From positions 1-64,000 of the IMG/VR virus record IMGVR_UViG_2929701070_000001: a stretch of DNA of 64,000 bases; one strand, written 5' to 3'. Every line of letters starts with the position of its first letter. Within the stretch, counting starts at the first letter, position 1. The notes beneath the pieces were generated by a model, which worked only from the letters and a program-made list of their open reading frames with translations, was not told where the DNA came from and did no database searches. The stretch comes from a virus. Its lineage: Duplodnaviria > Caudoviricetes. The position numbers and the translations under genes are program-made. Positions 55,817 through 63,736 of this stretch are shown here, in pieces.

Positions 55817-56065
55817 GTGAACCGCGACGTCTATCTGTCTCGGGCGGAAGCCGCCACTGTCGCCGGCGTGAAGCCGCGGACGCTGGAGGGCTGGCGCAAC
55901 CGAGGCTGGTCCACCCCCGCCGGCGAGCACCGGGAGTTGACGACCCGGCCGGGCCCGCGCGGGCATCTGCGCTACAAGCTCGGTGACGTCCTCGACGCTG
56001 CCCGCGACACGGCCCAGAATCCGAAAAACCCGGGCCGTGAAGCCCAGGTGCTGGTGCTGGCCTGA
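55817..56065 (+). CDS. MerR-like HTH protein
   Basis: LSRAEAATVAGVKPRTLEGWRNRG ... YKLGDVL. Confidence 0.8.
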   Translation: MNRDVYLSRAEAATVAGVKPRTLEGWRNRGWSTPAGEHRELTTRPGPRGHLRYKLGDVLDAARDTAQNPKNPGREAQVLVLA

Positions 56066-56376
56066 TGTCCGGGGGATGGGCTGGCAGCACGAGAAAGTCC
56101 ACGCTGCCGGCGAACTGGTACACCGAGATCCGCGCCGCCGTCATCGAACGGGACAAGGGCAAATGCCGGTGGCCGAGACCGAACGGCCGCGGCATCTGCG
56201 GGCACCTGGGCAATCAGGTCGACCACAAAGATGACCCGCTCGATCACCGCCTGAGCAATCTCCAGCTGCTGTGCGAGCGGCACCACAACTTGAAGTCGTC
56301 CAGGCAGGGCAACGAGGCGCGGGCCAAGCTGGTGTCGAACCGTCGGCCGAAGCCACCCCACCCCGGACTGCTGTAG
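56065..56376 (+). CDS. HNH endonuclease (packaging-associated type)
   Basis: RAAVIERDKGKC ... VDH ... NLQLLCERHH..K. Confidence 0.92.
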   Translation: MSGGWAGSTRKSTLPANWYTEIRAAVIERDKGKCRWPRPNGRGICGHLGNQVDHKDDPLDHRLSNLQLLCERHHNLKSSRQGNEARAKLVSNRRPKPPHPGLL

Positions 56377-58957: not shown

Positions 58958-59473
58958 ATGGCTGGACGCGGCCCCGCGCCGAAGGACCCGAGCAAGCGGG
59001 CACGACGCAACAGTGACCCCGTGCCCACCACCGTCATCGACTTCACCAAGGGTGAGCAGCCGGAACTGCCGGCGGACTACCCGTGGCCGGAGCAGACCCG
59101 CGCCTGGTGGCGGATGTGGGCAGAGTCTCCGCAGGCCGAGCATTTCATGCAAACCGACTGGGACTTCCTGCTCGACACTGCGATGGTGCACGCCGAGCTG
59201 TGGGCCGGAAACATCGGCGCTGCGGCTGAGCTGCGGCTGCGGGTGGCGAAGTTCGGCGCGACGCCGGAGGACCGGGCGAGGTTGCGGATTCAGTTCGCCG
59301 AGGCGGACGAGCGGGACGGCGCGCGGCCGGCGGGCAGCACCGCGAAGGAGCGGTACGGGAACCTGCGGCCGGTGGCCAGCGGCGAGGGCGGCGGCGCGAC
59401 GGTAGTGCCGATCAAGTCGGCCCCGGCGAGGAAGGCGGCGGCACCTCGGCGGCGCACCCAGGCGGACAAGTAA
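58958..59473 (+). CDS. terS: terminase small subunit
   Basis: MAGRGPAPK ... W..WAESPQA..F..TDWDFLLDTA..H ... ELRLRVAKFGATPEDRARLR, actinophage TerS pattern; position. Confidence 0.88.
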   Translation: MAGRGPAPKDPSKRARRNSDPVPTTVIDFTKGEQPELPADYPWPEQTRAWWRMWAESPQAEHFMQTDWDFLLDTAMVHAELWAGNIGAAAELRLRVAKFGATPEDRARLRIQFAEADERDGARPAGSTAKERYGNLRPVASGEGGGATVVPIKSAPARKAAAPRRRTQADK

Positions 59474-59587
59474 TCACGGCAACGAGCTGCGGGAACGCTC
59501 GCTTCGTCTCCACATGAGACAATAAAAACGTAAGCCCCGGCGGGTGCTGGTAACACCCCCGGGAGTGGCCGACTGGTTGGAGTCGAC

Positions 59588-60451
59588 ATGGCCGAGCATA
59601 CCTGCGCACACTGCGCCGGTCCCATCACCACCCGCACGAGCAAGGCGACCTTTTGCTCCGTCAACTGCCGTCAGGCGGCAGGTCGACGCCGGAGGGGCGA
59701 GGTCGTTGGGGCAGCCGGCAACTGCCCGGGATGCGGAGCCTCGCTCGCCGGGCGTTACCAGGGAACGAAGCACTGCTCGATTGCCTGCGCGAGGGCGGTT
59801 CAGCGGAATCCTGGAGTTCTGCTTCCGATGCTCCTGCCGATCCGTTGCCGTAGGTGCAGGGTGGAGTTGCCCGATCAGCGGGGCATCCGGGGCAAGAAGC
59901 GGCTGTGCAGCGACGACTGCCGACGGCAGAAGAAGAACGCCGTACGCCGCGCCGAACGCTTCACCATCCAATGCGTTGTCTGCCACGCATCTGTGGAGAC
60001 GGCGGACGGACAACAGCGGTACTGCTCGGTTGACTGCCGTAGGATCCGCCGCCGACACCCCCGTGACGCGAGGGTGTGCGGCCCATGTGGCTCGCCGTTC
60101 TGGCCGAACACGTCCCAGCAGATTTACTGCGGCCGGGTGTGCCGCAGGCGCGGTCATTACCTGGCGAACAAGGACCGCTATCTCTCCGACGTTCGGCTTC
60201 GCAAGGCCCGCGTTCGGGGTGTGACGACGGAGTACTTCACCAGCCTGGAAATCTACGAGCGGGACGGCTGGATCTGCGGCATCTGCCACCAGCACGTTGA
60301 TCCAAAGCTGGAGTTCCCGCACCCGTGGAGCAAGAGCCTCGATCACCGCATCCCCGTCTCCAAGGGCGGGCCACACTCCCGCGAGAACACTCAGATAGCT
60401 CACCTCCTCTGCAACCTCCGAAAGAGCGACAAGTTGCTGGAGGCCGTTTGA
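59588..60451 (+). CDS. free-standing HNH endonuclease with tandem Zn fingers
   Basis: repeated CxxC ... (F/Y/H)CSxxC units; IYERDGWICGIC ... SLDHRIPVSKGGPH...N...AH..CN..K. Confidence 0.9.
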   Translation: MAEHTCAHCAGPITTRTSKATFCSVNCRQAAGRRRRGEVVGAAGNCPGCGASLAGRYQGTKHCSIACARAVQRNPGVLLPMLLPIRCRRCRVELPDQRGIRGKKRLCSDDCRRQKKNAVRRAERFTIQCVVCHASVETADGQQRYCSVDCRRIRRRHPRDARVCGPCGSPFWPNTSQQIYCGRVCRRRGHYLANKDRYLSDVRLRKARVRGVTTEYFTSLEIYERDGWICGICHQHVDPKLEFPHPWSKSLDHRIPVSKGGPHSRENTQIAHLLCNLRKSDKLLEAV

Positions 60452-60469
60452 CGAGAGGACGGTGAGGTC

Positions 60470-62171
60470 ATGCCATGGAAGCCGAGTTACCCGGGGGAAG
60501 TCCCCACTCTCGGCTGGCTTTGACCTCGTCCTCGACTGGATCTCCGAGTATTTGGCGGCACCAGATCGGGCTGAGTATGAGCCCTTTGTGCCGTATTCGG
60601 AACAAGCCGAATTTCTACTGGCTTTCTATGAAATCAACCCGAGAACGGGAAAGCGTCGGCGTCGGCGGGGCGTGATCAGCCGGCCGCGTGGGTGGGGCAA
60701 GTCTCCGCTGTTGGGGGCGATCGCGCTCGCCGAGGCGTTGGGGCCGGTGGTGCCCGACGGATGGACAGCCGATGGAGAACCGGTCGGCCGTCCTTGGAGT
60801 GACATCCGCACGCCGCGGGTGGGCATCCTCGCTGTGTCGGAGGCGCAGACCGACAACACGTGGGCGCCGATGCTGGAGATGTGCGACGGCCCGCTCATGG
60901 CCGAGTACCCGGGCTTGGAACCGCTCGACACGATGGTGAACCTGCCCCGAGGGAAGATCGAAAAGGTCACCTCGTCGGCCCGTTCCGTCAAGGGCAAGCC
61001 GTTCAATTTTGCGGTGATGGACCAGACCGAGGAGTGGGTGCCGTCTAACGGCGGCCTTAACCTGTTCGAGAAGGTCAAGAACAACACGGCGAAGACCGGC
61101 GGTTCGTTCATTGAGTCGCCGAACGCGTTCATCCCCGGCGAGGGGTCGGTTGCCGAGCAGTCGGCGTCGTTCTGGGCGGCCATCAAGGAGGGCCGGGCCC
61201 GTGATGACGGCCTGTACTACGACCACCGTGAGGCGCCGGCCACCACGGACCTGACTGATCGGGAGTCGCTGATTGCTGGCCTGCGGCTGGCGTATGGGGA
61301 TTCGTCGGCGCACCCGGACGGGTGTGTGCTGCACGATCCGCCGTGCCCGCCGGGTCACACGGACCTGGACCATCTGGTTGCCACGATTTGGGATCCCACC
61401 TCGGATGAGCAGGTGTCCCGGTCGGACTTCCTCAACCAGGTCACCCACGCCTCCGACTCGTGGCTGTCGCAGCCGGAGTGGAAGGGCTGCTTCGACGGCA
61501 CGAAGGTGGTCGCCGACAAGGAGACCATCACCCTCGGCTTCGACGGCTCCCGGTCTCGCGCGAATGGGCGCACCACGGACGCGACCGCGTTGATCGCGTG
61601 TCGGGTAGAGGACGGGCACATTTTCGAGCCCCTGGACAAGTCCGTGTGGGAGCAGCCAGCGAAGATGCCGATCGGCCCCGACGGCAAGCCGACGGTGTGG
61701 CAGGTGCCGGTCCACGAGGTTGTGGCCGCCGTGCACGAGTGCTTCCGCCGATACAACGTGGTCGGGTTCTTCGCCGACCCGGCCAAGTGGGAGACGTGGA
61801 TCGCGGACTGGGAGGCCAAGTACGGCGCCCGGTTGAAGGTGAAGGCCACCCGTGACCACCCGATCGAGTGGTGGATGACGGGCGGCCGGTCGCGGCAGAT
61901 TGTGCAGGCGTTGGAGGAGTTCCACAACGCTGTGGTCACCCGGGAGTTGACCCACGACGGCTCGTACGCCCTGACACGTCATGTACTTCATGCTCGCCGC
62001 CGGTACAAGGCGGGCTCGGGGATGCAGATAGCGAAATCCCACCCAGACAGTGCCGACAAGATCGATGCCGCGGTTGCGGCCGTGCTCGCCTGGCAGGCGC
62101 GGATGGCGGCCGTGGCCGCCGGTGTGGAGACGAAGCAGCGGCGACCGTACCGGGTGAAGCGGCTCCGATAG
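60470..62171 (+). CDS. terL: terminase large subunit; 5' end interrupted by an in-frame TGA at 60521 (needs +1 shift or 7-nt hop)
   Basis: Walker A RPRGWGKS, AVMDQTE, LGFDGS, DATAL, KIDAAVA. Confidence 0.92.
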
Positions 62172-62206
62172 GCAAATCGCCGACGGCTACCAGGAAGGGG
62201 GTGGCC

Positions 62207-63736
62207 GTGGCGATCAACATCGAGGTGCCCCGCAGCCCCGGCTGGTGGATGGCGCGGCTGTTCAAGAAGCTGCACGACCGGCAGCGCGTTGACCGGCTGG
62301 AGTTGCTGCACAACTACCTGCACGGTAAGCCTCGGTTGCCGCAGGGCGCGGAGAACGTGCGGGAGATGTTCGCGCAGTTCCAGCGCAAGGCGTGCGTGAA
62401 CGTGCCCGCGGTGGTGGTGGGGTCGGTGTCGGATCGGCTTCGTCCGGTCGGTTTCAAAACGGCAGTTGACCAGGACGTTTCCGGTGACCAGCAGGCGTCG
62501 GACGTGTGGGAACGGACCGGCCTGAACATCATCGCCGCGGACGTGCACGACATGATGCTGAACCTCGGTGAGGCGTACGTGATTGTGGGTCCGGTCGATG
62601 ACGACACGGGGGCGCCGGTCATCACGGCTGAGGATCCGCGGTTCATGGTGGCGGAGGCTGACCCGGCGAAGCCGCAGAAGCTGCTGGCGGCGTTGAAGGT
62701 GCTGCACGACGACATTGACGGCGTGCACCGGGCGTACCTGTATCTGCCGGGCCGGGTGTATGTGGCGTTCACTCCGTCGAAGGTGGCGCAGGCGAGGCCC
62801 CGGTTTTCGTCGGCGTCGTGGTCGTGGGATGCGAGCAAGGGCGGCGAGGACGGCCAGAAGCTCACGCACGACCGGATGCCGGTGGTGCGGTTCCTGAACA
62901 AGGACGGTGCCGGCGAGTACGAGCACCACCTGGACCTGATCGACCGGATCAACCACAACATCCTCCAGCGGCTCGTGATCGCCAGCGGACAGGCATTCCG
63001 GCAAATGGCCGTGTCGGGGCTGCCGGACGAGGACGCAGACGGCAACGAGATCGACTGGTCCGACTCGTTCGTGATGATGCCGGGCGCCATGTGGCAGTTG
63101 CCGCCGGAAGCGGAGATGTGGGAGTCGCAGGTCACCGACCTGCGACCGATCATCGAAGCGTCCCGTGACGACTTCCGTCAGGTCTCCATGGCCACCGGCA
63201 CCCCCATGTACATGATGGTGCCGGACGGGCAGAACCAGTCGGCGACCGGCGCGGGCCTGTACCGGGAGCAGTTGGTGTTCCGGGCGAGGGACCGCCGGGA
63301 ACGGGCGACCGGCCGGTGGGCTGAGGTGATGTCGCTGGCGTTCGAGGAACTGGGTGACACCAAGCGCGCGGACGTGGCGACCTTGCGAACGCAGTGGGCG
63401 CCGGTGGAGCAGTTGTCGCTGGCGGAGAAGGCCGACGCGGCGGCGAAGGCGCAGAACGACATGCCGCGCCGGTCCCGGCTGATCGAAATTTGGGGCTGCA
63501 CCCCGGATCAGGCTGACCGGATGATGTCGGAGTGGCAGGACGAGCAGGTGTTCGCCATGCAGCTCGCGGCGATGCAGGCCGCCCAGAATCAGCTCCAGGC
63601 GGGTGGGCAGCCGCCGATTCGGGCTATCGCGTCCACGCCGGCGCAGCCGCAGGTGCCGCCGGCTGAGGATCCGCTGGCCGGGCTTGACCTCAACCAGATC
63701 GCGAGCACGGATCCGGTGACGACGGCGGTGAACTGA
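62207..63736 (+). CDS. portal protein (SPP1 gp6-like)
   Basis: follows terL; DRLRPVGF, GEAYVIV, PVVRFLN..G.GEYE...IDRIN patterns. Confidence 0.9.
   Translation: MAINIEVPRSPGWWMARLFKKLHDRQRVDRLELLHNYLHGKPRLPQGAENVREMFAQFQRKACVNVPAVVVGSVSDRLRPVGFKTAVDQDVSGDQQASDVWERTGLNIIAADVHDMMLNLGEAYVIVGPVDDDTGAPVITAEDPRFMVAEADPAKPQKLLAALKVLHDDIDGVHRAYLYLPGRVYVAFTPSKVAQARPRFSSASWSWDASKGGEDGQKLTHDRMPVVRFLNKDGAGEYEHHLDLIDRINHNILQRLVIASGQAFRQMAVSGLPDEDADGNEIDWSDSFVMMPGAMWQLPPEAEMWESQVTDLRPIIEASRDDFRQVSMATGTPMYMMVPDGQNQSATGAGLYREQLVFRARDRRERATGRWAEVMSLAFEELGDTKRADVATLRTQWAPVEQLSLAEKADAAAKAQNDMPRRSRLIEIWGCTPDQADRMMSEWQDEQVFAMQLAAMQAAQNQLQAGGQPPIRAIASTPAQPQVPPAEDPLAGLDLNQIASTDPVTTAVN

Follow-up and report, generated by a model that had tools for sequence, protein, structure and literature searches.

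The 5' end of the terminase gene

We examined a window of 64,000 nt (positions 1 to 64,000 of the IMG/VR virus record IMGVR_UViG_2929701070_000001, Caudoviricetes), which contains the packaging end of a prophage, and focused on the 5' end of terL, its gene for the terminase large subunit (TerL). The window features described here lie on the plus strand. A ribosome-binding region read from the sequence (GAGAGGA, then GGTGAGG; 60453..60467) is followed by ORF1 (60470..60520), a short open reading frame (ORF) of 17 codons that encodes MPWKPSYPGEVPTLGWL. ORF1 begins at ATG 60470, has CTT (60518-60520) as its final codon and is closed by TGA at 60521-60523. The rest of the terminase lies in the +1 frame, where coding resumes at GTC (V18) and continues to the end of the gene (60528..62171). 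Between the two parts lie the seven bases TGACCTC (60521..60527), comprising the stop codon, a C at 60524 and a CTC codon at 60525-60527, and the junction reads GGC TGG CTT TGA C CTC GTC CTC GAC TGG. Because CT is repeated, the placement of the seven bases is ambiguous and could be written anywhere within 60519-60527. An earlier note on this DNA (the original prediction) had described this start, stop, frame change and junction, and had proposed that terL depends on translational recoding. Our reading of the sequence confirmed the description, and the interpretation as a whole is partly supported by the results below.

The TerL body is uninterrupted over 547 codons, contains RPRGWGKS (Walker A) and matches the terminase large subunit family phrog_9 (E 2.6e-63 over residues 23-560). 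It is 63% identical to the annotated TerLs of Streptomyces phages SF1 and SF3 and 90% identical to P0004, its nearest relative; Pfam TerL_nuclease scored 23.1 bits, slightly below the cut-off of 24. The gap sits after codon 17, and GWGKS follows about 58 codons further on. The long +1-frame ORF spans 60462-62171 (569 aa from GTG 60462), with the TerL body extending from VLDWISEYLAAPD onward. The public gene call (P0154, 527 aa, MPYSEQ...) starts at GTG 60587, 39 codons downstream of ATG 60470, and leaves out the 17 codons of ORF1 together with the first 20 codons of the body; a protein identical to P0154 is on record from four contigs. The closest homologues carry names that point to a Micromonospora-like actinomycete as the probable host.

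The stretch 59400-62400 is present, without a single difference or gap, in Logan contigs of two public sequencing runs, whose word depths are 367 and 606. The runs represent two samples from two studies, and both are possibly source data of this assembly; an assembler slip is ruled out for this strain, though the agreement of the two runs is not independent biology. A sequencing error, which the original prediction had kept as an option, was likewise rejected for this strain, as all 7 bases are kept in both assemblies. The soil metagenome X3 contained many diverged relatives and nothing usable at the junction.

Conservation of the TerL N-terminus

The N-terminal pattern (M/I/L)PW(K/R)..PGE(V/L)PTLG-x-x-VLDW is common to the TerLs of phages SF1 and VWB (Streptomyces), ReT1v-2 (Rhodococcus) and Kuwabara (Gordonia). 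We compared the window with 150 homologues of at least 300 aa collected by two protein searches, 140 of which have a readable N-terminus; the other ten comprise nine N-truncated gene calls and one protein, P0010, that is shifted like the window. In 140/140 readable homologues, exactly two residues separate PTLG from (V/I)(L/I)DW. Across 40 homologues, five of the first 17 residues are invariant and five are nearly so, and ORF1 retains all of the invariant ones (W3, P5, P12, L14 and G15). By this comparison, the short frame from ATG 60470 is the true TerL N-terminus, and TGACCTC amounts to exactly 7 extra bases, since all readable homologues read through the junction unbroken. Passing directly from CTT to GTC would give PTLGWLVLDW, with the spacing seen in the family, which bears out the original prediction's view that this peptide fits TerL N-termini. 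AlphaFold2 modelling of P0004 (mean pLDDT 86.3) places residues 15-25 in a helix with block-mean pLDDT values of 92-95, and the 17|18 junction falls within that helix.

Loci from IMG/VR gave the same picture at the nucleotide level. Among 54 loci read from a first scan, none showed a stop or frame change at the junction: 41 fit the motif, seven keep its spacing but differ in residues, and the N-termini of the other six are of a more distant type. A script run over 100 loci (L035-L134) returned 80 instances of a PTLG-type motif, 67 of them with the normal 6-nt spacing; the other 13 are chance out-of-frame 'PSLG' strings.

Several relatives have unusual gene starts of other kinds. Three close TerL relatives from Micromonospora isolates (P0005, P0155 and P0022; 86-90% identical) are annotated as N-truncated proteins, and P0005 (MNRKSPFL) and P0022 (MKRKSPFL) begin right at the Walker A motif, GWG|KSP, the same spot as the g6/g7 gap in the terminase of phage phiHau3 discussed below. 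These three may conceal a second kind of coding gap in the window's TerL clade. Three further proteins, P0101 (MLDW...), P0088 (MAIDW...) and P0023 (VIDW...), are called from the codon right after the junction studied here; their starts could reflect contig ends, start-calling, or more junction lesions with the +1 frame closed upstream.

A second carrier of the shifted N-terminus

P0010 is known as a protein alone (557 aa, from one Logan contig of 3841 nt). It is 72% identical to the window's TerL and begins MRPCHGSRAVLGSSLHSAGFDLILDW, where the +1 reading of the window gives MRSCHGSRVTRGKSPLSAGFDLVLDW, and the two have an equal number of codons up to LDW. Back-translation of P0010 permits a short frame MPWKPS?PGE(V/L/I)PTLGW(L/V/I/F), followed by TGA or CGA. 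Five differences between the window and P0010 (V9A, R11L, K13S, P15L and L16H) each need a change in the second base of the +1 codon, which is the third base of the short frame, and all five keep the inferred short-frame residue. Of the further differences, one alters the variable short-frame residue 7 and the other affects residue 11, where V or L results, in line with the rest of the family. Because the differences fall on its third positions, the short frame, and not the +1 frame, appears to have been constrained as these genes diverged. Together with the full-length bodies of both genes, this pattern fits a gap that has persisted in working genes; two separate acquisitions are also compatible with the data. 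The original prediction had named an insert unique to one prophage as an outcome that would speak against it, and P0010, seen as protein only, weakens that objection. When P0010 was used as the query, its nearest relatives (76% and below) had normal N-termini and no further shifted protein was found; a query with the window's shifted N-terminus alone (region 1-40) gave 13 candidates, none of which scored.

These comparisons bear on whether the canonical 17 residues are needed at all. Translation could instead begin at GTG 60462, giving MRSCHGSRVTRGKSPLSAGFDL-VLDW, or re-initiate at TTG 60551 or GTG 60587. No stop interrupts the +1 frame from GTG 60462 onward, P0010 is also called from the equivalent codon, GTG 60587 is the start used in the public annotation, and termination at a UGA near a start codon could be coupled to re-initiation. 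We nevertheless regard an alternative start as quite improbable. GAGAGGA is spaced 10 nt from ATG 60470 and just 2 nt from GTG 60462, and the 'MR' common to the window and P0010 is merely the ribosome-binding site GTGAGG read as codons. The differences between the two genes fall on +1 second positions, so the +1 frame is not the constrained one, and the ten invariant or nearly invariant positions lie within the canonical first 17 residues. Homologues start at the codon equivalent to ATG 60470, contrary to the possibility raised in the original prediction that they might start at GTG 60462, and the downstream starts would lose the helix predicted at residues 15-25.

Proposed recoding at codon 17

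Translational recoding of terL, whether by a hop or by a +1 slip, is in our judgement the best explanation of this arrangement, with a probability of roughly 0.6. The form that we favour, tentatively and at somewhat under even odds, is a 7-nt hop (bypass) from CUU to CUC. Ribosomes would start at AUG 60470 and synthesise MPWKPSYPGEVPTLGWL; at that point the P site would contain CUU, wobble-paired with peptidyl-tRNA-Leu(GAG), and the A site would contain UGA-C. A fraction would escape termination: the tRNA would release CUU, the mRNA would slide by 7 nt, and the tRNA would re-pair with the fully cognate CUC (60525-27). Decoding would then resume at GUC and yield a TerL with the family-normal junction ...PTLGWL-VLDW..., while other ribosomes would terminate and release a 17-residue peptide. 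The occurrence and efficiency of bypassing, and any role of the hairpin or the neighbouring HNH gene described below, are what we infer from this layout, as is the regulatory 'switch on packaging' suggested in the original prediction.

The decoding machinery of the host is compatible with this scheme. One host tRNA-Leu(GAG) was found, in agreement with the earlier claim that CUU and CUC are read by the same tRNA; by standard wobble rules, CUC is fully cognate to it and CUU is read by G-U wobble. CTT is rare in the prophage late genes (25/519 Leu codons). ARAGORN found no tRNA genes in the window. Two other routes across the junction were considered and rejected. The host has tRNA-Sec, and insertion of selenocysteine at UGA would continue in frame 0 into an unrelated peptide that soon stops; transcriptional slippage was set aside as the T run is just 3 bases.

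A +1 frameshift of the kind used in RF2 (prfB) synthesis needs a single-base move: tRNA-Leu(GAG) would slip from CUU to UUU, GAC would be decoded next, and the product would read ...GWL-DL-VLDW.... The heptamer CUU UGA C, with its weak-termination C, is the conserved RF2 shift site as described in PMC5009743, in agreement with the original prediction. The +1 frame is open from 60462 and the tRNA is present in the host. We nonetheless consider the slip unlikely. The SD-like (Shine-Dalgarno-like) element 3 nt upstream that drives RF2 shifting is absent, as had been noted earlier, and the host prfB is itself not frameshifted, which gives no indication that the mechanism operates in this host. The slip would also add two residues where 140/140 homologues have none, and these would fall within a confidently predicted helix; the same extra-residue argument led the authors of PMC10732093 to favour bypass in phiHau3. 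Hop and slip may both occur at this site, with the hop product alone expected to be native.

Rarity of the gap and the possibility of decay

The arrangement could also be a recent inactivating 7-nt insertion in a decaying prophage that has no functional TerL, its layout having arisen by chance. In DNA, the insert is seen in this genome only. The prophage is dispensable: raw reads of strain X10, which has the same species label, gave 0 on the region, a result that is uninformative about the gap site itself. In addition, no integrase was located next to the prophage, the public annotation calls the shorter protein P0154, and close Micromonospora relatives (P0005 and P0155) also have N-truncated TerL calls. 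The layout itself speaks against this reading. By our own rough estimates, which are not tool results, a random 7-nt insert would place a stop right after the last native codon with a probability of about 0.02 and would end in a codon of the same tRNA with a probability of about 0.03; the joint odds of a stop and a matched landing codon are below 1 in 1000. P0010 has the same frame structure at 72% identity, with full-length bodies in both genes, and the other late genes and the conserved residues of ORF1 are all intact. On balance, we think it improbable that terL has simply been inactivated.

A number of observations nevertheless weigh against recoding. Only two gap carriers, the window and P0010, were found among several hundred relatives, and about 96 IMG/VR TerL loci are without the insert. 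Scans for the gap pattern gave 0 matches in genome_contigs, 0 in viral_contigs and two in metagenome_contigs, both unrelated, and the sole other close TerL found among 401 genomes of the family, that of G303, is unbroken. The P0010 evidence consists of inferred codons, and the Phe codon TTT, which gives the stop, is an assumption. In a quick maximum-likelihood tree, for which the careful search is unfinished, P0010 branches as sister (SH-aLRT 89) to a clade with a support of 96, which contains the window, P0004 with P0005 (99), P0006 with P0028 (99), and P0022. P0004 and P0006 have normal N-termini, and since the shifted P0010 lies outside the clade that holds them, the gap is patchily distributed. 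UGA is the commonest stop codon of the prophage, and termination should therefore usually win. No SD-like run was read within 15 nt 5' of CTT (ACT CTC GGC TGG), the pairing of the Shine-Dalgarno sequence (SD) with the junction described below is not shared by relatives, and no RNA run was found among the public runs containing the region. Finally, no integrase lies beside the prophage and no tyrosine integrase was found on contig C3; the prophage may not be a complete, inducible element.

Comparison with known and candidate recoding systems

The closest parallel to the window is the candidate UUA-triggered bypass in TerL of Streptomyces phage phiHau3, prophage StrepC.1 and an S. catenulae prophage (Antonov et al., 2023, PMC10732093, citing Smith et al., 2013), a precedent that the original prediction had invoked and that the paper bears out. 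Such gaps are reported there in 3/100 ter genes and measure 7 nt in the two Streptomyces prophages, which we set beside the window by this reported length only. According to the same source, full-length product appears in Streptomyces, a bypass junction peptide was found by mass spectrometry, and a recoded product was obtained in E. coli when UUA was replaced by the stop UAA. From the genome record, the phiHau3 g6/g7 junction reads AAG GGT TGG GGC | TTA CTC CGG T | AAG GAC. Take-off is at GGC with UUA in the A site, the 10-nt gap TTACTCCGGT closes with GGT, a synonym of GGC, and decoding resumes at AAG.

The phiHau3 and window genes are both actinophage TerLs of the same broad family, interrupted by a frame-breaking insert of 7-10 nt without counterpart in relatives. 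In both, the insert opens with a codon that is slow to decode and closes with one synonymous with the codon that precedes the insert (GGC/GGT in phiHau3, CTT/CTC here); the product would have the native junction, and local mRNA structure may be a further point in common. The two differ in the trigger, a rare sense codon (UUA) in phiHau3 and the stop UGA here; in position, at Walker A (KGWG|K, g6/g7) or the g7/g8 junction there and after codon 17 here; and in the codon pair, Gly GGC/GGU against Leu CUU/CUC, with no internal SD seen here. Given the UGA trigger, the proposed link to bldA and the host cell cycle does not apply to the window's terL. By analogy, the mechanism class of phiHau3 would still fit a UGA-led gap, because a stop functionally replaced UUA in E. 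coli (PMC10732093), while its regulatory logic would not. The window may thus represent a phiHau3-type terminase coding gap with a stop-codon trigger, at a new site and in a new host group.

Other systems described in a 2016 review (PMC5009743) share parts of the arrangement. The heptamer CUU UGA C at 60518-60524 is identical to the RF2 site defined there, and a short ORF1 is likewise followed by a functional body in the +1 frame; the window differs in that the SD 3 nt upstream is missing and the gene is unconnected with RF2 synthesis. The resemblance to T4 gene 60 lies in a stop right behind the take-off codon, a landing codon that matches it, and a gap, patchily distributed among relatives, in the 5' part of an essential gene that directly follows a free-standing HNH gene. 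Bypass in gene 60 is associated with a MobA HNH homing-endonuclease cassette (PMC5009743; Manning and Atkins, preprint 10.1101/2022.08.31.505936). The gene 60 gap is 50 nt long compared with 7 nt here, and the window has neither a compact take-off stem-loop nor a known nascent-peptide signal that we could see. In engineered stop-hops (1987 work cited in PMC5009743), peptidyl-tRNA likewise skips a stop over a short distance and re-pairs with a matching codon; those were in-frame and low-level, whereas hopping in the window would occur naturally, out of frame and in a phage gene that is essential. By that review's account, no natural in-frame stop-hop was known.

Very few natural cases of bypassing are known: T4 gene 60 and its homologues, inserts in yeast mitochondria, and the phiHau3 terminase gaps, which are still candidates. 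If it takes place here, the phiHau3-type layout would be independent of the special UUA/bldA biology of Streptomyces, and 17 codons, one stop and one landing codon would form a minimal natural substrate for studying the requirements of hopping. Such genes are mis-annotated in practice, and tools that assess prophage completeness would score the element as defective.

RNA structure around the junction

Folding of 60450-60535 (86 nt) predicts a long imperfect hairpin (60455..60533) at -43.1 kcal/mol (z -3.57), and 0/200 shuffled sequences fold as well; a 106-nt stretch around the site has a folding z of -2.23. Three helices make up the hairpin. GAGGACG (60455-61) pairs with CGTCCTC (60527-33), AGCCGAG (60480-86) pairs with CTCGGCT (60509-15), and GAGGTCA (60464-70), which includes the SD and the A of ATG, is the exact complement of TGACCTC in the gap (60521-27). 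In P0010, one mismatch is expected in the SD region for this SD-to-gap pairing. A search of Rfam over 59400-61000 gave no match at E values up to 1.

As modelled, the hairpin would conceal the SD and AUG of terL. The stop of the upstream HNH gene (60449-51) lies 4 nt before the 5' arm, which suggests that a ribosome finishing that gene could open the hairpin and that initiation of terL could be coupled to HNH translation. If the hairpin re-formed behind ribosomes pausing at CUU-UGA, it could promote their forward movement, by analogy with the mRNA refolding discussed for T4 gene 60 in a preprint (10.1101/2024.12.09.627546). Template switching within the imperfect palindrome is a possibility for the origin of the insert; its junctions misfit a clean switch, and the mismatch in the P0010 SD region likewise speaks against it.

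Prophage context and the neighbouring HNH gene

The packaging end of the prophage encodes, in order, a small HNH endonuclease (103 aa, 56065..56376; phrog_333, E 1.1e-25), TerS (58958..59473; Pfam Terminase_7, 118 bits; 41% identical to TerS of the G303 prophage), a 287-aa HNH endonuclease (59588..60451; Pfam HNH, 28.9 bits; phrog_1271, E 2.2e-28), TerL, and a portal protein with its start inferred at GTG 62201 (62201..63736; Pfam SPP1_portal, 76.2 bits; phrog_104, E 4.9e-97). The 287-aa HNH gene, whose product has an N-terminus of repeated CxxC zinc ribbons, ends 18 nt before ATG 60470, consistent with the free-standing HNH that the original prediction had placed next to terL. Its GC content is 0.650, compared with 0.719 in TerS, and in most relatives TerS directly adjoins TerL. 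Relatives of the 287-aa protein are at most 57% identical and located elsewhere; none was found in genome_contigs, and in the genus there are distant ones only. A zinc-ribbon homologue (34% identical) lies upstream of TerS in G303, where the small HNH, the zinc-ribbon HNH, TerS and an unbroken TerL form one run (L153, G303:C101, 2323-3810, minus strand), so that the zinc-ribbon HNH stands on the opposite side of TerS from that in the window. Another homologue occurs among the tail genes of the IMG/VR contig L029, and HNH relatives are found at the genome ends of many actinophages. Taken together, the 287-aa HNH looks like a mobile, free-standing endonuclease.

The neighbourhood of this gene and the gap raises the question of whether they form one mobile unit, a small counterpart of the T4 mobA/gene 60 cassette. 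This is an analogy to which we give little credence. Equally doubtful is its corollary that the endonuclease would target GGCTGG-CTC-GTCCTCGACTGG at the 5' end of gap-less terL, the insert destroying the site in the carrier, and we would assign similarly long odds to the insert persisting because UGA and the CUC landing codon permit hopping. A mobile unit would explain the presence of the gap in two TerL lineages 72% identical to each other while closer relatives are without it. Against it, an HNH-like ORF adjoins an unbroken terL in three IMG/VR relatives. It is also possible that the level of terminase could follow the termination capacity of the host, RF2 alone reading UGA.

The late module of the prophage is complete, with TerS, portal, scaffold, decoration, major head, adaptor, major tail and chaperone genes, a 1745-aa tape measure, Dit, minor tails and holin, all open and recognisable. 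Upstream of the tape measure gene, two overlapping tail-assembly-chaperone ORFs (L033:9929-10749, minus strand) show the usual canonical -1 frameshift arrangement, which we take as another sign of an intact late module. A serine recombinase lies about 5.6 kb past the left end of the window. Word depth of the prophage contig exceeds that of one chromosomal contig (G000:C5:271404-271877) in both public runs (367 vs 224 and 606 vs 432, a ratio of 1.4-1.6); this is only a hint, to be read as spontaneous prophage replication or as a plain replication gradient. About 25 kb past the right end of the window, just after the holin region, a gene on the minus strand (L034:5197-6801) encodes a protein of 534 aa that combines a TROVE (Ro60-like) domain with a VWA domain (phrog_850; Pfam TROVE, 74 bits). 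TROVE proteins usually partner with a small Y-like RNA.

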